Shown one piece after another: positions 1,920 to 11,034 of a DNA stretch of 64,000 bases; the stretch's first letter is position 1, and each line of letters opens with the position of its first letter. This DNA comes from Thermoanaerobaculia bacterium (lineage in GTDB: Bacteria; Acidobacteriota; Thermoanaerobaculia; Gp7-AA8). Both the position numbers and the translations under genes were made by a program. The notes under the pieces are model-generated. The model was given only the letters and a program-made list of their open reading frames with translations. It did no database searches and had not been told where the DNA came from. The DNA is taken from NCBI GenBank assembly GCA_036375135.1, contig DASUSL010000091.1, positions 10,947-74,946 on the forward strand, read 5' to 3'.

Positions 1920-2645
1920 CTACGCCGACGCGCCGCCGTCGATGGCGAGGACCTGGCCGGTGATTCCGCTGGCGTCGTCCGACAGCAGGAAGGCGATGGC
2001 CGCGGCCACCTCGTCGGCGCGGATGGCCCGGCGCATGGGGATCTGGCGGATCATCTCCCGCTTCACGTCCGGGTCGAGGGCCGCGATCATGTCCGTGTCG
2101 ACGAGGCCGGGCGCCACGCAGTTCACGCGGATGCCGCTGCGGGCCACTTCGCGGGCGAGGGAGCGGCTCATGGCGATCAGGGCCCCTTTCGCGGCGGAGT
2201 AGTTCGTCTGGCCGACCACCCCGTGCAGTCCCGACAGCGAGGCCACGTTCACGATCGCGCCGCGGCGCTGCTGCATCATCACCGGCAGCACGGCCTTGGT
2301 CATCGACCACGCGCCGCGCAGGTTCGTGTCCAGCACCTCGTCCCACTGCTCGGGGGACATGTTGTAGAGGAGGGCGTCCTGCCGCACGCCGGCGTTGTTG
2401 ACCAGCGCGTCGATCGTGCCGAATTTCGCGGCGACCTGTTCGGCCACGCGCTTGTTGGCGTCGTGGTCGCGCACGTCGGCCTCGAACGCCAGGGCGCGGC
2501 CTTTGGACTCCGCCTCGAACGCGAGGGCGGCATCTTTGGACTTCCCGTACGTGAACGCGATCGACCAGTCCTCGGCGAGCAGATGCATCGCCGTCACGCG
2601 GCCGATGCCGCGGGAGCCGCCGGTGATGAGTGCGACTCTGGTCAG
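1920..2645 (-). CDS. fabG: 3-oxoacyl-ACP reductase-like short-chain dehydrogenase (FabG family)
   Basis: [11 protein letters not shown] Rossmann motif, NNAG, YSAAK catalytic motif and a FabG-like C-terminus. The stop is TAG (rc of 1920-1922). No ATG/GTG/TTG lies between the acs stop and the Rossmann motif, so the start is uncertain (possibly CTG 2643-2645 overlapping the acs stop). Confidence 0.75.
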
Positions 2646-4594
2646 GATTCTTCCTCGTATTTCTCTTTCAGCGTGGCCACGACCGTGGGATCGGCGAGCG
2701 TGGTCACGTCGCCCAGGGCGCGGCCCTCGGCGATGTCGCGCAGGAGGCGGCGCATGATCTTGCCGGAGCGCGTCTTGGGGAGGTCGACCGAGATGATGAT
2801 CTTCTCGGGCCGCGCGATCGCGCCGATCTTTTCCGCGACGTGGGCCTTCAGCTCCTGCTCGAACTTCGCCGGATCGGCGAGGGCGGCCTCGCGCTCGCTC
2901 TCCTTGACGATCACGAACGCGGCGATGCCGGTGCCCTTGATCTCGTGCGCGATGCCGACCACCGCGGCCTCGGCGATCGAATGGTGGTCGACCAGCGCGG
3001 ACTCGACTTCCATGGTCCCGATGCGGTGTCCGGCGACGTTGATGACGTCGTCGACGCGGCCCAGGAGCCAGAAGTAGCCGTCTTCGTCGCGCTTCGCGCC
3101 GTCGCCCGTGAAGTAGACCCCGGGCCACTTCGACCAGTACTGCTTCACGAAGCGATCGGGGTCGCCCCAGATGCCGCGGAGCATCGACGGCCACGGGGAG
3201 GTCAGGGCGAGGTAGCCGCCGCCGACTTCCACTTCCTTGCCGCTCTGGTCCAGGATCTTCGCGTCGATGCCCGGGAACGGCTTCGTCGCGGAGCCGGGCT
3301 TGGTGGGGACCAGGCCGGGCAGCGGGGTGATGAGGATCGCGCCGGTCTCGGTTTGCCACCAGGTGTCCACGATCGGGCAGCGCTCGCCGCCGATGTTGCG
3401 GTGGTACCAGATCCACGCCTCGGGGTTGATCGGCTCGCCGACGCTGCCCAGCAGTCGCAGGGAGGACATGTCGTGCGACTTCGGCAGATCTTCGCCCCAC
3501 TTCATGAAGGCGCGGATGGCGGTGGGGGCGGTGTAGAAGATCGAGACCTTGTGCTTCTCGATGATCTCCCAGAAGCGGTCTTTCTTCGGCCAGTCGGGCG
3601 CGCCCTCGTAGATCATCACCGTGGCGCCGGCGGCCAGCGGGCCGTAGACGACGTACGAGTGGCCGGTGACCCAGCCGATGTCGGCGGTGCACCAATAGAT
3701 GTCGTCGTCCTTGAAGTCGAAGACCCACTTGCAGGTGGCCAGGCACTGGGTGAGATAGCCGCCCGTGGTGTGGACGATGCCCTTCGGCTTGCCGGTGCTG
3801 CCGGAGGTGTAGAGGACGTAGAGCATGTGCTCGGAGTCGACCCACTCCGGCTCGCACCAGGCGTCGGCGGAGGCCATGACGTCGTGGTACCAGACGTCGC
3901 GGCCGTCGTGCATGGTCACTTCATCCTCGGGGCGGCGGCGGACGACGACGACTTTCTCGATGGACGGGCACTCGGCGACCGCGGCGTCGGTGGTCTTCTT
4001 CAGCGGCACGACCGTGCCGCGGCGGTAGCCGCTCGTGGCGGTGATGCAGACCTTGGCCGTGCCGTCCTGGATGCGGTCTTTCAGGGCGTCGGCCGAGAAG
4101 CCGCCGAAGACGACCGAGTGGATGGCGCCGATGCGCGCGCAGGCGAGCATGGCCACCACGGCCTCGGGGATCAGGGGCATGTAGATCGCGACGCGATCGC
4201 CTTTGACGACGCCGAGGGACTTGAGGGCGTTGGCGAACTTGCAGACGTCGGCGTGGAGGGCGCTGTAGGAGATGCGGCGGATCTCGCCCGGCTCACCCTC
4301 CCAGATCAGGGCGATTTTGTCGCTGTTCTTCTCGAGATGGCGGTCCAGGCAGTTGAAGGACGCGTTGAGGGTGCCGCCGGTGAACCACTTCGCGTAGGGC
4401 GGCTCCCACTCCAGCACCTTGTCCCACTTCGTGTGCCAGTCGAGCTGCTCGGCCCACCCTGCCCAGAATTTCTCGCGGTCTTTGTCGGCCTTCGCCCAGA
4501 TCGCGGGATCCTTCACGTTCGCGTTCCGGCGGAACTCCTCGGATGGCGGAAACTCGCGGCTTTCCTGCAGGAGTGCGTCGATCTCTTGAGCCAT
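2642..4594 (-). CDS. acs: acetyl-coenzyme A synthetase (AMP-forming)
   Basis: 650 aa; N-terminal [24 protein letters not shown]-binding box [12 protein letters not shown]-terminal [11 protein letters not shown]; colinear with Acs. Confidence 0.95.
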
Positions 4595-4635
4595 TCTTCA
4601 TGACCTCCAGGGGAGCGAGATTGTATAGCGTTGAT

Positions 4636-4906
4636 TTTTCGAATCCTCGGCCTGATTCGTCGAATCTTCGCGAGGATTCCCATTCGCTTCGCGAGGATTC
4701 CCATTCGCTTCGCGAGGATTCCGTTTCGCTTCGCGAAGATTCCGTTTCGCTTCGCGAAGATTCGTTTTCGCTTATCGAAGATTCAGGTTCGCTTGTCGAG
4801 GATTCGTTTTCGCTTCGCGAAGATTCGTTTTCGCTGATCGAGGATTCGTTTTCGCTTGTCGAAGATTCGTTTTCGCTTCGATCGGATTTCGCGAAAATCG
4901 CGAAAA
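4636..4906. repeat. tandem array of about 12 degenerate 21-bp units (consensus TCGTTTTCGCTTCGCGAAGAT) in the acs upstream / purQ downstream intergenic region
   Basis: Direct head-to-tail repeats with no unique spacers. Each unit carries the palindrome TTCGCGAA or a near variant. The array ends in TTCGCGAAAATCGCGAAAACG. Confidence 0.9.
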
Positions 4907-4934
4907 CGCAGGCAAGTGAAGCTAGGTCAATGGC

Positions 4935-5630
4935 TTACGCCCGTGCGAACGACGCCGCGATCGATTTGAAGACCAGCAGGCCGTCGGCATTTCCGAGGAT
5001 CGACTCCGCGCAGCGCTCCGGGTGGGGCATCAGGCCGAGGACGTTCCGGCCGCGGTTGCAGATGCCCGCGATGTGGCGGGCGGAGCCGTTCGGGTTGGCC
5101 TCGCTGGTCAGGCGCCCCTCCTCGTCGCAGTAGCGGAAGATCACCTGCCGGTTGCGCTCGAGCTCATCGAGCGTGGCCTCGTCGGCGAAGTAGTTCCCCT
5201 CGCCGTGGGCGATCGGCGTGCGGATGATCTGCCCGGCCGCCAGCTCGTTCGTGAACGGCGTATCCGTCTCCTCCGTGCGAATGAAGACGTCGCGGCCGAG
5301 GAAGCGGAGGTGCTGGTTGCGCATCAGCGCCCCCGGGAGCAGGCCGACTTCCGTCAGCACCTGGAACCCGTTGCAGATCCCGAGGACCAGGCCCCCCGCC
5401 TCGGCGTGCCGGCGGATCGGGTCCATGATCGGGGCGAACTTCGCCAGCGCGCCGGCCCGCAGGTAATCGCCGTACGCGAAGCCGCCGGGGATGATCACGC
5501 AATCCGCGCCCTTGAGGTCCGTGTCCTTGTGCCACAGCATCTCGGCGTCTTGTCCGAGGACGTCCTTCGTCACGTGAAGCGCGTCGTGATCGCAGTTCGA
5601 GCCGGGGAGGACGACGATGCCGAATTTCAT
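4935..5630 (-). CDS. purQ: phosphoribosylformylglycinamidine synthase subunit PurQ (glutaminase)
   Basis: 231 aa; [16 protein letters not shown]...GICNGFQ (Cys nucleophile) ...HPER; class-I GATase of the PurQ type. Confidence 0.95.
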
Positions 5631-5681
5631 GCCCCGAGTTTAACAAGTGAAACGGTTCGGCGGTCTCCTGCACTATCGGGT

Positions 5682-6815
5682 ATGCAGGTGGAAGAAGTCC
5701 GTTTCAACCACAACCCGAATTCGGCGGCGAACGACGCCATGACGATCGCCGTCAACGGCGCGTCCGGGGCTGTCGTTGCGCCGGAATGGCAGCGCAGTCC
5801 GGTCAAGCGCGACCCGTGCGCGTACGCCCTCGGCGCCCTCAGCGGAGCGGTGACGATCAAGGCGCGCTTCTCCGGCGGACCGTCGAACGGCGTCCGGCGG
5901 ATCCGCGCGGTCGACGCCAACCCGGTGCCTCCGCAGCAGGCCGGGTGCGCCGGCTTTCTGCTCTGGCTGCTCCAAGCCATCCTCCACGCCTTGTTCGGCC
6001 CCATCGGGGACGTTCTGCCGAAAAACGTGGCGTTCGATGCGGCCGGCAACTCGGGGCTGGAGACCTTCACGCTCAACGCCCCGTACCTCGGCGCGAACGG
6101 CTTCGTCACGAAGCGCAACACGGTGTGGAAGTGGCAGTACAAGTCGGGCGGCTCGTGGATCGACTTCGACACCACCGACCACACCATGTACGTCACCGTA
6201 GACCTGCCCACCGCGCCGTGGGTGCAGTCGGGGAACCCGTCGCAGCTCCCGTGGGCGATCGCGTTGGATCAGGCGTGCCTCTGGGCCATCGGGAAGAAGA
6301 CGAAGGACGACGTCGCCGCGGCCATCACGCTGGAAGTGAATCGCGTGCCGAACGTCTCCTACACGCCGATGACGATGTTCGGCTTCAGCGACTATCAGCT
6401 CACGTCGTACCTCACGCATCTCGCGGGCGGACCGTTCATCATGAACTGCACCGACGCCGCCGACGCCGTCACGACGCTCTCCAACCTCCTCGGCTGCAAC
6501 CTGGCCGAGGGGCGGTTCTTCAACATGGTGACGCGGAAGTTCCTGACCCTGTCGGGCAATCCCGCCGTTCCCGCGGACTGGGTATCGTGGGCGTGGGGCT
6601 ATCACGAGATCTGCTGGCTGAACGACTTCTCCAGCAACACCGTGTGGGACGGCTGCCTGCAACTGGACATGAGCGACGTGCCGAACGTGCACGTGGCAAA
6701 GCTGGTGGCGAAGATGCCGTTCAGCGTGCCGGACCCGAACGACTACAAGACGCGCCTGATCGCGAGCGGCCTCGGCACGCTCGAGAGTTTCGTCCGGCAC
6801 CGGGCCGTGGTTTAA
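5682..6815 (+). CDS. hypothetical protein (377 aa) with no recognisable family; first gene of a two-gene cassette inserted between purQ and purS
   Basis: ATG at 5682 is in frame with ORF 5022-6815, whose upstream part is antisense to purQ. Codon usage and GC resemble neighbouring genes. Seven Cys; C256-x51-H308-x14/20-D323/329 spacing. Confidence 0.6.
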   Translation: MQVEEVRFNHNPNSAANDAMTIAVNGASGAVVAPEWQRSPVKRDPCAYALGALSGAVTIKARFSGGPSNGVRRIRAVDANPVPPQQAGCAGFLLWLLQAILHALFGPIGDVLPKNVAFDAAGNSGLETFTLNAPYLGANGFVTKRNTVWKWQYKSGGSWIDFDTTDHTMYVTVDLPTAPWVQSGNPSQLPWAIALDQACLWAIGKKTKDDVAAAITLEVNRVPNVSYTPMTMFGFSDYQLTSYLTHLAGGPFIMNCTDAADAVTTLSNLLGCNLAEGRFFNMVTRKFLTLSGNPAVPADWVSWAWGYHEICWLNDFSSNTVWDGCLQLDMSDVPNVHVAKLVAKMPFSVPDPNDYKTRLIASGLGTLESFVRHRAVV

Positions 6816-6824
6816 GGAGAGACG

Positions 6825-7490
6825 ATGCAGCGGGAAATCACGATGAAAGCAATCGCTCCGGTGCTCGGCCATCCGCGCGAGCCGGGTCTGCTGCTGGTGG
6901 GCTTCAAGGCCTGGTCCGGGCCGCAGCCGGACGGCGCGTCGTCGCTGCGCGAGCAGCTCGCCCCGAACAGCTCCCGCGCGGTGTGGGACCTCGGCCGCGG
7001 CCGGATCGCGCTGACGGTCACCGAGCACGGCTCGGTGGAAGACGCGCTGAGCGCGCTCGCGGACGACATGGAAGCCAACCAGCTCGCGGAAGTGCCACGC
7101 GGCCCCGAGGACGTCGGGGAGATCAGCTTCGTGCATCCGCCCGAGGCGCCGCCGGCGCTGTTCTTCGTGCGCGGCAACCTGACGATGGGCGTATTCAGTT
7201 TCGGCCGCGAGGCCGTGGACGTCGAGCCGTTCGCGCGGCGCGTCGACACCGAGCTGCGGGCGCGTCCGGCGGATGCGCGTGAAGGCAACCTGGAGGTGCA
7301 GCGCGGCGAGCGCGGCATCGTCGTGAAGCCGCGCTACGCGGGAGACGGCTACGTGAAAGTGTTCGCGGCGGGGAAGGCGCGCAAGCACGGCGCCGAGATC
7401 GTCCTCGAAGGAGACGGCGACGCGGACCTCTATTACGTGGAGCCGGGCCGCGAGACTCAGCGGGCGACGGCGGGGCGCGGCAAGTTGTAA
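6825..7490 (+). CDS. hypothetical protein (221 aa), translationally linked to the upstream gene
   Basis: AGGAGA Shine-Dalgarno 8 nt upstream of ATG 6825; 9-nt gap after the 6815 stop; no family recognised. Confidence 0.55.
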   Translation: MQREITMKAIAPVLGHPREPGLLLVGFKAWSGPQPDGASSLREQLAPNSSRAVWDLGRGRIALTVTEHGSVEDALSALADDMEANQLAEVPRGPEDVGEISFVHPPEAPPALFFVRGNLTMGVFSFGREAVDVEPFARRVDTELRARPADAREGNLEVQRGERGIVVKPRYAGDGYVKVFAAGKARKHGAEIVLEGDGDADLYYVEPGRETQRATAGRGKL

Positions 7491-8491
7491 ATCGTGAGGA
7501 ACCCCGCGCGGTCGGTGGCGACGAGGGAGTTGCTGGCCGGGTCGAAGGCCAGAGCGTAGGCGTCCACGCCATACAGCGATGCGGGCGTGACGCCGCGGGT
7601 CGAGCCGGGGAAGGCGGTGCTCGCGCTGCAGCGGCGCTCGGCGTAGACGACCAGCGTATCCGCGCCGGCGACCGTGGCCACCTGCGGGCCGGCGTTCTCG
7701 GGGATGCACACGCGGTTGCCGTTCACGAGCTCCCTGCCGGACTTCACCGCCTTCTCGAAGATCGCGTCGCGGCTGAAGGCGACGAGGGAACGGTCGCCCG
7801 CGGCGAACGTCGCGGACTCGATGGTCTTGTCGGTCTGCATCGGGTCGCGCGAGATCACGGTGAAGGTCTTCGTGTCGAATAGCGTTACGGCCGTGGCCTT
7901 GGCGTTGCCGAAGTTCTCGGTGGCGAAGACCGCGAGGGTGTTGCCGCTCGCGCTGACGGCGATGGTCATCGGATCGTCGATCGGCAGCGTGCGCAGCTCG
8001 GTGTCGCCCTCGCGGTCGTAGACGTGGACCTTGCGGCCGAGGACGTAGACGTAGCGGCCCTTCGGATCGGGGATGACGTCGCGGATCCGCTCGCCCTCCA
8101 TGGTGATCTCGCGGAGGACGGCCAGGTTCGGCAGGGAAAGGATCAGCGCGCTCTCGTCCGTACCGTTGGCGATGTAGAGGCGCGAGCGGTCGGGATTCGT
8201 GCGCAGGGTGACCAGCTCCTTGGTTGCGGCGATCTGCGCGGAGTCGAGGACGACGTGCTTCCGGACCGTGCCGGTCGCGGGGTCGATCGCGGCGACGGAC
8301 TGCGTCTCGGCCAGGCCGACGTAGATGGTGCCGTCGGCACCGACGGCGACGCCGCGCGGGTCGCCGGACAGCGTCCAGCGCTTGATCACCTTCCGGTCTT
8401 TGGTGGAGACGGGCCTGAGGGTGTCAGCGACCAATGCAGGGGCGAAGAGCGACACCGCCGCGGAGGTGAGCAGGACGAGAGCGGCGAGTCT
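7457..8491 (-). CDS. secreted YVTN/NHL-type beta-propeller repeat protein
   Basis: Signal-peptide-like SRSRLAALVLLTSAAVSLFAPALVA, followed by repeated G.DG.IYV / dPa.g.v motifs. The start codon is unclear: there is no canonical start between the purS stop and the signal peptide; in-frame GTG at rc 8453-8455 or an upstream ATG overlapping purS are alternatives. Confidence 0.6.
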   Translation of the reverse strand, partial: RLAALVLLTSAAVSLFAPALVADTLRPVSTKDRKVIKRWTLSGDPRGVAVGADGTIYVGLAETQSVAAIDPATGTVRKHVVLDSAQIAATKELVTLRTNPDRSRLYIANGTDESALILSLPNLAVLREITMEGERIRDVIPDPKGRYVYVLGRKVHVYDREGDTELRTLPIDDPMTIAVSASGNTLAVFATENFGNAKATAVTLFDTKTFTVISRDPMQTDKTIESATFAAGDRSLVAFSRDAIFEKAVKSGRELVNGNRVCIPENAGPQVATVAGADTLVVYAERRCSASTAFPGSTRGVTPASLYGVDAYALAFDPASNSLVATDRAGFLTIYNLPRPAVAR

Positions 8492-8738
8492 ACTCCTCGA
8501 GTGTGTAGGAGAATTTTTCGATGACCGTGTTCGCGAGGAGCCGCTCACACATCTGCCGAAGCTGCGTTTCGACGTTCTCCCGTGTCTGCCCACCATCCGC
8601 AAGCGTAATTCGGAACACTTTGCCCACCCGCACATCTTCCACACCGGAGAAGCCGAGCGAGCTCAGCGAGTGCTCGATGGCCTTGCCCTGAGGGTCGAGG
8701 ACGGACGGTTTGAGCTCGACGGTAACGGTTGCCTTCAT
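8490..8738 (-). CDS. purS: phosphoribosylformylglycinamidine synthase subunit PurS
   Basis: 82 aa MKATVTVELKPSVLDPQGKAIEHSLSSLGFSGVEDVRVGKVFRITL...MCERLLANTVIEKFSYTLEE matches the PurS family over its full length. Confidence 0.9.
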   Translation of the reverse strand: MKATVTVELKPSVLDPQGKAIEHSLSSLGFSGVEDVRVGKVFRITLADGGQTRENVETQLRQMCERLLANTVIEKFSYTLEE

Positions 8739-8855
8739 CGGGCGCGGATTCTATCTCCTCCGTCCCACGGAGGATAACGATGAACGATGAGCGATGAACC
8801 GCCTTCACCCCGGATGGGAGGCAGGGTTCATCGTTCATCGTTCATCGCTCATCGT
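8739..8855 (-). promoter_or_regulatory. structured purS leader: long imperfect hairpin built from GAACGAT/ATCGTTC heptamer repeats, plus a small hairpin that pairs the purS Shine-Dalgarno
   Basis: GATAACGATGAACGATGAGCGATGAACC ... GGTTCATCGTTCATCGTTCATCGCTCATCGTTC arms. On the purS sense strand, CCTCCGTGGGACGGAGG occludes GGAGG about 14 nt before the ATG. Confidence 0.5.
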
Positions 8856-9692
8856 TCAAAAGAGCGATAGCTGGCCCGGGAGGGGCTTGCGCTCGCGGCG
8901 GCGGGCGACGTCGAAGAGGCCTGTCGGCTCGAATTGTTTCGCAATGGAAAACTCGAGGCTCGCGCCCGTGCGGCGAAGCAGGCGCGTGCACATGTCGCGG
9001 ACGATCGACTCGTGGTTGTTCTTCTGCGAGAGGTGGATCATGCAGAGCGTCTTCAGGTCGGCGCCGAGGAGGCGCTGCACGGCGCTCACGGAATCGTCGT
9101 TCGACAGGTGGCCGAACCGCGACATGATCCGGCGCTTGAGCGACCACGGATAGCTGCCCATGCGGAGCATGTCCAGATCGTGGTTGGATTCGAAGAACAG
9201 GCCGTCGCATCCGCTGAGGTGGTCGAGCACTTCGCGGTTCACATAGCCGAGGTCGCTGGCGATGCCCACGCGGGTGCCGTCGCGGGACTCGATGACGAAG
9301 CAGGAGGGGTCCGCCGCGTCGTGGATCGTCTTGCGGGCGTGGACCTGCAGCTCGCCGATCCGGAACGTCGTGTCGTTCTGGAACACGACCATCTTCACGT
9401 CCGTCGTGTCGATGTTCGACGCGTCGAGCGTGCCTTTGGTCAGATAGATCGGCACCTCGTACTTGCGGGCGATCTTCTCCGCCCCGCGGATGTGATCGTA
9501 GTGCTCGTGGGTGACGACGATCGCCGAGAGCCGCTCGATGTCGCACCCCAGCGTGGCCAGGCGCTTCTTCGTGTCCCTGGGACCTATGCCGGCGTCCACG
9601 AGGATGGCTGTGCCGTCGCTCTCGAACCAGTAGGCATTCCCGGCCGAACCGGAGGAGAGAGGGGCCACGAGCATGGAGCGATGGTAGCTCAT
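8856..9692 (-). CDS. MBL-fold metallo-hydrolase
   Basis: THEHYDH (HxHxDH) motif and GSGSAGNAY N-terminus; about 270 aa. The start may be the internal ATG (MLVAPLSSGS). Confidence 0.8.
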   Translation of the reverse strand: MSYHRSMLVAPLSSGSAGNAYWFESDGTAILVDAGIGPRDTKKRLATLGCDIERLSAIVVTHEHYDHIRGAEKIARKYEVPIYLTKGTLDASNIDTTDVKMVVFQNDTTFRIGELQVHARKTIHDAADPSCFVIESRDGTRVGIASDLGYVNREVLDHLSGCDGLFFESNHDLDMLRMGSYPWSLKRRIMSRFGHLSNDDSVSAVQRLLGADLKTLCMIHLSQKNNHESIVRDMCTRLLRRTGASLEFSIAKQFEPTGLFDVARRRERKPLPGQLSLF

Positions 9693-9744
9693 TACCGCCA
9701 GCTCTGCGCTCGCTCAGGGCTAACCGGGTATGATCCGGCGCGAA

Positions 9745-11034
9745 ATGGCTGAACGGTTTATCGTCGAAGGTGGTCACCGGCTCGAAGGCTCGATCCGGCC
9801 GGGCGGCAACAAGAACGCGGCGCTGCCGATCCTGGCGGCGTGTCTGCTGACGGACGAGCCGGTGGTGCTCCGGAATCTGCCGGACATCCAGGACGTCCGG
9901 GTGATGCTGCAGATTCTCGAAGGGATCGGCGCCTCGGTCGAGCGTCTCGAGCAGAACGTCGTGCGCGTCACCGCGAAGGGCGACATCTCCTGCAACCCCG
10001 ACACGGAGCTGTCGAAGAAGATCCGCGCCTCGATCCTCCTGGCCGGGCCGCTGCTCGCGCGGTGCGGGAGTGTCTCCGTGGCGAAGCCGGGCGGAGACGC
10101 GATCGGCCGGCGCCGCGTCGATACGCATCTCCTCGCGCTGGAAGCCCTCGGCGCGCAGATCGAAGTGTCGGCGTACGAATACAACATGTCCGCCCGCGCG
10201 CTGCGCGGGAAGAAGATGTTCCTCGACGAGGCCTCGGTCACCGCAACCGAGAACGCGATCATGGCCGCGGTGCTGGCCGAGGGCGATACGTTGATCTACA
10301 ACGCCGCCGCCGAGCCGCACGTGCAGGACCTCTGTCACATGCTCATCTCCATGGGCGCGCAGATCGAGGGGATCGCCACCAACCAGTTGAGGATCCAGGG
10401 AGTCGAGGCCCTGCACGGCTGCGACTACACCATCGCCAGCGATCACATCGAGGTCGGCTCGTACATCGGCCTGGCGGCGGTGACGCGCAGCGAGCTGGTG
10501 ATCGAGGACGCCGTCCCCGAGCACATGTACGCCGTGCGGCACATGCTCGAGAAGCTCGGCGTCGAGATCAAGATCGAGGGGAAGAACATCCGCGTCCCGC
10601 GCAACCAGGAGCTGCGCGTCCGCTACGACATCGGCGCCGCGGTGCCGAAGATCGACGACGGACCGTGGCCGCTGTTCCCGGCGGACCTGCTGTCCATCAT
10701 GGTGATCATCGCCACGCAGGCCGAGGGGACGGTGATGATCTTCGAGAAGATGTTCGAGTCGCGCCTGTTCTTCACGGACAAGCTGATCGGCATGGGCGCG
10801 CGGATCATCCTCTGCGACCCCCACCGGGCCATCATCGTCGGCGGCGCGCGCCTGTACGGCGGCGAGATCTCCAGCCCCGACATCCGCGCCGGCATGGCTC
10901 TGCTCCTGGCCGCGCTCTGCGCGAAGGGGGAGAGCATCATCCACAACGTGCATCAGATCGACCGCGGCTACGAGCGGATCGACGAGAGGTTGAACGCGCT
11001 GGGGGCGCGGATCCGGCGCGAACGGGACGTCTGA
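9745..11034 (+). CDS. murA: UDP-N-acetylglucosamine 1-carboxyvinyltransferase
   Basis: MAERFIVEGGHRLEGSIRPGGNKNAALPILAACLL...; full-length EPSP-synthase-fold MurA. The ORF also allows an upstream ATG at 9730. Confidence 0.95.
   Translation: MAERFIVEGGHRLEGSIRPGGNKNAALPILAACLLTDEPVVLRNLPDIQDVRVMLQILEGIGASVERLEQNVVRVTAKGDISCNPDTELSKKIRASILLAGPLLARCGSVSVAKPGGDAIGRRRVDTHLLALEALGAQIEVSAYEYNMSARALRGKKMFLDEASVTATENAIMAAVLAEGDTLIYNAAAEPHVQDLCHMLISMGAQIEGIATNQLRIQGVEALHGCDYTIASDHIEVGSYIGLAAVTRSELVIEDAVPEHMYAVRHMLEKLGVEIKIEGKNIRVPRNQELRVRYDIGAAVPKIDDGPWPLFPADLLSIMVIIATQAEGTVMIFEKMFESRLFFTDKLIGMGARIILCDPHRAIIVGGARLYGGEISSPDIRAGMALLLAALCAKGESIIHNVHQIDRGYERIDERLNALGARIRRERDV

Follow-up and report, generated by a model that had tools for sequence, protein, structure and literature searches.

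Transglutaminases of animals (TG2, TG3, factor XIIIa, and protein 4.2) are made of a beta-sandwich, a core, and two beta-barrels, and among bacteria the core fold with Cys-His-Asp chemistry is represented by LapG/BTLCP, proteins of the TgpA type (PF01841), the protein-glutaminase of Chryseobacterium, and TglA of S. pyogenes. We analyzed a stretch of 64,000 nucleotides (the window) from the genome of a Thermoanaerobaculia bacterium (phylum Acidobacteriota; contig DASUSL010000091.1, positions 10,947 to 74,946), and we describe here a two-gene module, A and B, that is located between the purine genes purS and purQ and is on the opposite strand. The protein encoded by A is predicted to have the core fold and the Cys-His-Asp chemistry of the bacterial proteins named above, with a beta-sandwich in front of the core as in the animal proteins. 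We think that A is probably an autonomous cytoplasmic thiol acyl-enzyme, either a hydrolase or a transamidase, that B is its regulatory or substrate-binding partner, and that the two function apart from purine synthesis.

Both A (5682-6815, + strand, 377 amino acids) and B (6825-7490, + strand, 221 amino acids) are real genes, based on their coding composition and their many homologues. The G+C content of the window is ~68%, long spurious open reading frames (ORFs) are common in DNA with high G+C, and several such frames overlap the A-B region, all of which could indicate that A and B are chance frames or decaying remnants. This explanation is refuted. The host type of G+C distribution among codon positions was confined to the frames of A and B and was missing from the long overlapping ORFs in other frames. 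The G+C content at third codon positions was 0.915 for A and 0.892 for B, a host-like coding pattern (0.93 for purQ, acs, and murA). In addition, full-length homologues with invariant residues were found by the hundred, and the structure models of both proteins were confident. The spacer between A and B is 9 nt (9-10 nt likewise in loci L001, L002, L004, L005, and L007), and an AGGAGA ribosome binding site for B, read directly from the sequence at 6815-6820 (+ strand), overlaps the stop codon of A. This arrangement suggests that translation of B is coupled to that of A.

A belongs to a large protein family that has no entry in the family libraries that we searched. Its product matches, with 100% identity, a hypothetical protein from a metagenome-assembled genome (MAG) of Thermoanaerobaculia (Acidobacteriota). 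Close homologues number at least 149, vary little in length, and are all labelled hypothetical. A profile of A, compared to 1.84 billion representatives, matched 1,586 clusters (50% identity) at E<=1e-3 and 372 at E<=1e-30. For A and for B, there was no match to Pfam, NCBIfam, or PADLOC at E<=1 and none to PHROGs at E<=0.1, and profile searches of the PDB with each of the two proteins also gave no match.

The predicted structure of A has the fold of a transglutaminase. The AlphaFold model, made from a 63-sequence alignment, had a pLDDT of 92.8 and a pTM of 0.90. When this model was compared to known structures with Foldseek, the top 47 matches in the PDB were all animal transglutaminases (probability 0.94-1.0), and the structural similarity to solved members of the transglutaminase-like/papain-like superfamily was significant. 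The model begins with a beta-sandwich (residues ~1-175), which contains a hydrophobic helix (residues 89-105), and continues with a papain-like core. Many relatives matched the A profile in two parts, skipping positions ~83-104, which hold the hydrophobic helix, and helix 89-105 therefore seems to be a clade-specific insertion in the beta-sandwich.

The residues of the predicted catalytic triad are invariant. The triad consists of Cys256 (6447-6449, in the motif NCTD), His308 (6603-6605, in YHEICW), and Asp323 (6648-6650, in DGC), all on the + strand and in the order Cys, His, Asp along the chain. These residues were invariant in the 63 close sequences, in two further alignments (A4 and A5), and in the 149 top family representatives wherever the position was aligned (C256 in 148/148, H308 in 147/147, and D323 in 142/142). 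W180 and G271 were also present in every aligned sequence of the top 149. Assignment of secondary structure to the model with DSSP placed C256 at the start of a helix (256-269), H308 in a strand (304-313), and D323 just after a strand (320-322), and in the model this order is that of the transglutaminase/papain topology. Based on the model, we place A in the transglutaminase-like/papain-like superfamily at the level of the fold. The sequence-only reading, made from the letters of the window and its ORFs, had called the products of both genes unrecognizable and had proposed structure prediction for the 377-residue protein. That prediction is the one described above; it makes A recognizable by its fold, and the description still applies to the family libraries. 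Neither A nor B turned out to be a member of a characterized housekeeping family. A 'vasohibin-like' family with a Cys-His-Ser triad has been described in Acidobacteria (PMC4866520). We did not accept A as a member of that family, given the Cys-His-Ser triad there and the lack of any kind of Pfam match for A.

The architecture of A differs from that of the animal transglutaminases. There is no detectable sequence similarity between them, and A ends after the core, with no C-terminal barrels in cis. The accessory domains that go with A (one Mog1/PsbP-like and one Ig-like) are provided by the separate gene B or by fusion, unlike those of the animal proteins. A is also bacterial and has no signal peptide. 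Its N-terminal strand is conserved (F8, N9, and H10), and the protein is probably cytoplasmic. Other members of the family have additional N-terminal sequences. In P0258, a metagenomic protein of 1087 amino acids, Laminin_G_3 (concanavalin-like) domains are N-terminal to the A domain, and others have N-terminal extensions of 120-190 amino acids. Some branches of the family may thus be extracytoplasmic.

B appears to be a binding protein and not an enzyme. It has 65 close homologues of conserved length, and the confident model (pLDDT 92.9) has a Mog1/PsbP-like alpha-beta domain (residues ~1-150) followed by a predicted Ig-like beta-sandwich made of the C-terminal ~70 residues (~150-221). Comparison of the model to known folds indicated that the fold type of B is that of binding modules. 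In 119 distinct B sequences, including those from fusions, the conserved residues were E67, S70, A74, G98, F102, N118, A137, and P148; conservation was limited to structural positions, and there was no catalytic-looking constellation of residues. Some close relatives, including those in loci L001 and L088, lack the Ig-like domain.

The association between A and B is maintained across the family. Of 87 loci with A proteins as little as 30% identical, 80 had a homologue of B directly downstream of A in the same orientation, and five of the seven exceptions end no more than 260 nt from A. A single polypeptide combines A and B in 45 of the 149 top family representatives; A corresponds to residues ~5-380 of it, and the B-like part starts around residue 450. 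The fusions and the nearly universal adjacency argue that A and B act together physically and argue against B as no more than an antidote, and we infer that the two proteins form a complex. Neighbor clustering did not reveal a third neighbor conserved across clades. In two loci with fused A-B, a protein of ~138 amino acids is encoded directly 3' of the fusion (L168 6608-7021 and L169 4128-4547). The two versions are 37% identical, have no Pfam match, and are clade-specific, with no counterpart in the window. This protein is a candidate third component in the clade with the fusion.

We suggest a mechanism that involves both proteins. Cys256, at the N-terminus of a helix and together with His308 and Asp323, would form a thioester by attack on the carbonyl of an amide or ester. 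The thioester would then be resolved either by water, in which case A would be a peptidase, isopeptidase, or glutamine deamidase, or by an amine, in which case A would catalyze transamidation. B would bind A as an obligate subunit and would serve as a regulatory lid or as an adaptor that recruits substrates; in many other Acidobacteriota, the two parts make up one polypeptide. There are two precedents for a lid-like B: the protein-glutaminase is kept inactive by a removable pro-region, and TG2 has occluding beta-barrels.

Several observations weigh against this reading. The TM-scores from Foldseek for A versus the animal transglutaminases were only ~0.38, and the packing and orientation of the domains of A therefore differ from those of the animal proteins. 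Profile matches of A to Transglut_core (PF01841) and Transglut_N (PF00868) were absent, and 99 diverse relatives of A had no Pfam match at E<=0.1 and no family in common. Comparison of the A alignments with the TG2 core by hhalign (the segment used was 100% identical to PDB TG2 residues 274-405) gave a probability of <=0.2, indicating no relation. Searches of Pfam and PDB profiles and hhalign gave no link at the level of sequence between A and any transglutaminase family. Lastly, three properties would also fit a conflict system: the loss of A-B from one close relative (L008), the divergent allele in another (L125), and the likeness of B to the folds of immunity and adaptor proteins of type VI secretion systems (T6SS).

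We considered whether A-B might be a toxin-immunity or effector-adaptor pair, with A a toxin of the transglutaminase/papain fold (a deamidase, protease, or cross-linker) and B either its immunity protein or an adaptor of the Eag type that would serve contact-dependent delivery. The layout is suggestive: an enzyme gene is next to a gene for a small Mog1/PsbP-like or beta-rich binder immediately downstream, as in T6SS effector-Eag (DUF1795, Mog1/PsbP fold) and Tse3-Tsi3 pairs. In addition, Tox-TGase domains are known and PsbP/MOG1-like proteins are encoded beside T6SS toxins (PMC3482391), and the fold neighbors of B also favor this explanation. The module is present in some close relatives and absent from others and is found in varied contexts, and the allele in L125 is divergent. 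We nonetheless regard this explanation as unlikely. Trafficking regions of the PAAR, Rhs, LXG, or transmembrane (TM) type and a signal peptide are all absent from A, whose N-terminus is conserved and structured. Domain scans found no N-terminal trafficking domain in A, and neither a linked secretion apparatus nor a T6SS neighborhood was seen in any annotated neighborhood. In Eag proteins, the Mog1/PsbP-like fold binds N-terminal TM helices of a PAAR effector; B does not fit this description, has no DUF1795 match, and its best fold matches are not immunity proteins. There was also no match to PADLOC. Members of the A family are of uniform length, A is present in single copy in the window, and inheritance appears to have been mostly vertical. 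Lastly, the many fusions of A to B would be unexpected for a toxin and its antidote and point to B as a subunit.

We found A-B in at least three contexts that are unrelated to one another. In the first, the order is purQ, A-B, and a propeller gene with purS (the window, L001, L002/L003, L090, L091, L125, and L126). In the second, A-B is between thiC and other genes on one side and Peripla_BP_2 and RidA genes on the other (L004, L005/L006, and L116), and in the third it is between genes for an M20 peptidase and cyanophycin synthetase (L007). Because A-B is present in unrelated contexts, we rejected a functional tie to purine synthesis. In four loci a PETase- or chlorophyllase-like hydrolase is encoded upstream of A-B, and this neighbor is clade-specific. 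All but one of the family members with a named taxon were from Acidobacteriota. The relatives of one fusion named by NCBI, fused and unfused, were from Pyrinomonadaceae/Blastocatellia, with the exception of one unfused protein from a Chloroflexota MAG.

The neighbors bear on two other explanations. A-B could be an anti-phage or abortive-infection module, in which B would sense a cue from the invader and free A to proteolyze or cross-link cellular or viral proteins. The module is dispensable, patchy, and in a variable region, and some of the fused members are near TPR-CHAT and Peptidase_C70/C39-like genes, which favors such a function; a TPR-CHAT gene is within 7 kb in L007 and there is a weak AbiEii-like neighbor in L005. 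These neighbors are inconsistent among loci, though, and there were no matches to PADLOC or PHROGs. The locus in the window is amid housekeeping genes, and stable vertical inheritance over a clade is atypical of defense islands. A function in defense therefore seems to us quite improbable. Alternatively, A could be a small-molecule acyltransferase or amide synthase similar to arylamine N-acetyltransferase (NAT) or GdmF, with B as a scaffold or carrier. Several genes near A-B handle amides or amines (those for PurQ, an amidase, RidA, the M20 peptidase, and cyanophycin synthetase). These neighbors change by clade, there were no consistently co-occurring biosynthetic genes, and the NAT-like fold matches were weaker and shorter than those to transglutaminases. 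We therefore give this alternative very little weight. We continue to favor the view that A-B is a thiol acyl-enzyme with a binding partner.

The location of A-B between purS and purQ is specific to one lineage. Among 79 other genomes sampled across many phyla, 59 had purS directly upstream of purQ, with a median gap of 32 nt. In the window, purS (8490-8738, - strand; Pfam PurS 1.1e-30) and purQ (4935-5630, - strand; FGAM synthase glutaminase subunit, Pfam GATase_5 2.5e-41) flank the module and are on the same strand in the order usual for a purS-purQ(-purL) cluster. They differ from the canonical cluster by a separation of 2,859 nt, with three unrelated genes inside, two of them (A and B) antisense. 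purQ is followed by acs (2642-4594, - strand) and not by purL within the window, and upstream of purS are a gene for a protein with the metallo-beta-lactamase (MBL) fold (8856-9692, - strand) and murA (9730-11034, + strand). purS adjoins purQ in the more distant Thermoanaerobaculia and Acidobacteriota (including L015, L049, L010-L012, and L021), and several of them carry MBL-purS-purQ. In the clade with PurQ 85-89% identical to that of the window, the interval holds the propeller gene and, usually, A-B.

A-B probably entered the locus long ago and was then inherited vertically. At least five further lineages have the cassette in this position (L001, L002/L091, L090, L125, and L126); in these, A is 44-81% identical to that of the window, and its divergence follows that of the host genes except in L125. 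A is 81% identical between the window and L001, 80% identical between L002 and L090, and ~70% identical between these two groups, and B likewise tracks the hosts. One relative, L008 (SMAG_U3271; PurQ 87% identical to that of the window), has the order murA-MBL-purS-propeller-purQ-acs with no A-B. In a blastn comparison, homology between the window and L008 ended at 5645 (L008 6985) and restarted at 7466 (L008 6838); thus, 1,820 bp (5646-7465) are present in the window and 146 bp are in their place in L008. L008 is very similar to the cassette-bearing L001 (PurQ 92%, PurS 95%, and MBL 90% identical). Because L008 is sister to L001 and nested among carriers, the absence of A-B is best read as a secondary deletion. 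The parsimonious reading of these comparisons is one old insertion of A-B into the purS-(propeller)-purQ interval, in an organism ancestral to one clade of Thermoanaerobaculia, with vertical descent thereafter and a deletion in at least one descendant, L008. The propeller gene is a separate insertion: L008 has it without A-B, and A-B loci in other contexts do not have it. For the same reason, we rejected the propeller gene and A-B as one unit, each being found without the other.

The L125 and L008 loci each have a distinctive feature. L125 has the same context (2383-4216: purQ, A-B, and propeller gene), and its PurQ, PurS, and MurA are 85-90% identical to those of the window, but A and B are only 44-48% identical. 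The A protein of L125 is 44-47% identical to all other A proteins at this site and is intact, with the Cys, His, and Asp kept, and B is also intact. These differences could be due to replacement of the allele or to accelerated divergence. The 146-bp replacement in L008 includes a pair of GC-rich hairpins that are nearly identical and inverted relative to each other (L008 6850-6965; GGAGTGCGGCGGCCTGGCCGCCGCTTTT ... AAAAGCGGCGGCTCAGGCCGCCGCACTCC) and that are absent from the window, L001, L002, L090, and L125. They could be back-to-back terminators or a small element similar to a miniature inverted-repeat transposable element at the site of the deletion.

There were no indications of mobility. 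No integrase or transposase was found near the cassette, repeats around it were of chance length only with no target-site duplication and no terminal inverted repeats, composition analysis revealed no anomaly across the A-B region, and no relatives were found on viral contigs or in phage or plasmid records. Based on these results, A-B looks like an old chromosomal module with no marks of mobility. The sequence-only reading had correctly given the coordinates and strands of the genes, the 9-nt gap, the AGGAGA site, and the propeller gene on the strand of the pur genes, all of which we confirmed on the sequence. It had also noted that purS and purQ are normally contiguous and had raised the question of lineage specificity, which is borne out by their adjacency in distant Acidobacteriota and by the lack of A-B in L008. 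Its suggestion of a cargo insertion, with the recent arrival that this could imply, was not supported, given the native composition, the absence of mobility genes, repeats, and phage or plasmid relatives, and the use of the same site in several lineages. The interval is indeed interrupted, as it had noted, but the gap is the product of two events and not of a single 2.9-kb insertion.

Gene A might be expressed from its own promoter as an mRNA with little or no leader. A lacks an upstream Shine-Dalgarno sequence. A promoter-like motif, GTGAAA(C)-N18-CACTAT (5647-5676, + strand), ends 5 nt short of the ATG, and TGAAAC ... CACTAT/CACTAC is kept in the window, L002, L090, and L125 with similar spacing and an unchanged distance to the ATG, amid bases that differ. 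A scan with the E. coli promoter consensus found no promoters, the TGAAAC motif being below threshold. The conservation of the motif suggests a sigma-70-like promoter and a leaderless or near-leaderless mRNA.

The propeller gene overlaps genes on both sides. It extends from 7457 to ~8548 on the - strand (the start is uncertain: GTG at 8548 or ATG at 8596), has weak matches to beta-propellers of the YncE or PQQ_ABC_repeats type, and has an N-terminus like a signal peptide, as expected for a secreted protein. Its 3' end overlaps that of B tail-to-tail by 34 nt. There were no terminator-like sites between the B and propeller genes, and the overall number of such sites was within the expectation from shuffled sequences. 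Because of the overlap and the lack of a terminator, either there is a promoter for purQ inside the 5' region of A, or transcription reads through antisense to B and A. At the other end of the propeller gene, the purS stop is not followed by any canonical start codon for it. The frame runs ~60-110 nt into the 3' end of purS (8490-8596), and the core of the signal peptide starts right behind the purS stop in all relatives, which implies that translation of purS and the propeller gene probably overlaps and is possibly coupled.

The sequences flanking purS and purQ also have features of their own. In the gap between the MBL gene and purS (8739-8860, - strand) there is a two-hairpin structure (-60.3 kcal/mol; z = -5.7 versus shuffled sequences). 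The first hairpin has a ~28-bp stem of GATGAAC/GATGAGC heptamer repeats, and the second, shorter hairpin (CCUCCGUGGGACGGAGG) overlaps the Shine-Dalgarno sequence of purS. No Rfam families were found in 4400-9800. These hairpins could be a terminator, an attenuator, or an element for translational control of purS. The 340-bp spacer between acs and purQ has a lower G+C content (0.53-0.60) than its surroundings and contains a tandem array at 4666-4880 (10.2 copies of a 21-nt unit, CTTCGCGAGGATTCGTTTTCG, with 86% matches). The corresponding spacer is 57 bp in L008, and in L001 and L002 it contains a gene for a protein of 367-389 amino acids with a hydrophobic N-terminus and no Pfam match (50% mutual identity). 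Both flanks of purQ therefore vary among members of this clade.

No description of the A-B pair was found in the literature. The fold and chemistry are known; what seems to be undescribed in the libraries and literature that we searched is the family, with its architecture and distribution. The splitting of purS and purQ is a lineage-specific change in synteny and is of minor interest, apart from the two alternatives that it leaves for the transcription of purQ. The family is large (~1,600 clusters at the 50% level) and is missing from Pfam, NCBIfam, PADLOC, and PHROGs, and its members with a named taxon are, with one exception, from Acidobacteriota, a dominant and poorly characterized phylum in soil. 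With a fold, a triad, and a partner assigned, the family is now open to direct testing. A broader idea, which we offer tentatively and consider doubtful as a whole, is that A-B is an unrecognized intracellular protein-modifying system mainly of Acidobacteriota and the closest prokaryotic structural counterpart of the animal transglutaminases (beta-sandwich and core), with lid or adaptor domains supplied by B in trans or by fusion, and that it cross-links, deamidates, or cleaves cytoplasmic proteins in response to a signal sensed by B. The likeness of the two domains of A to those of the animal transglutaminases exceeds that of any solved bacterial transglutaminase-like protein that we found, and it bears on the origin of the animal transglutaminases.

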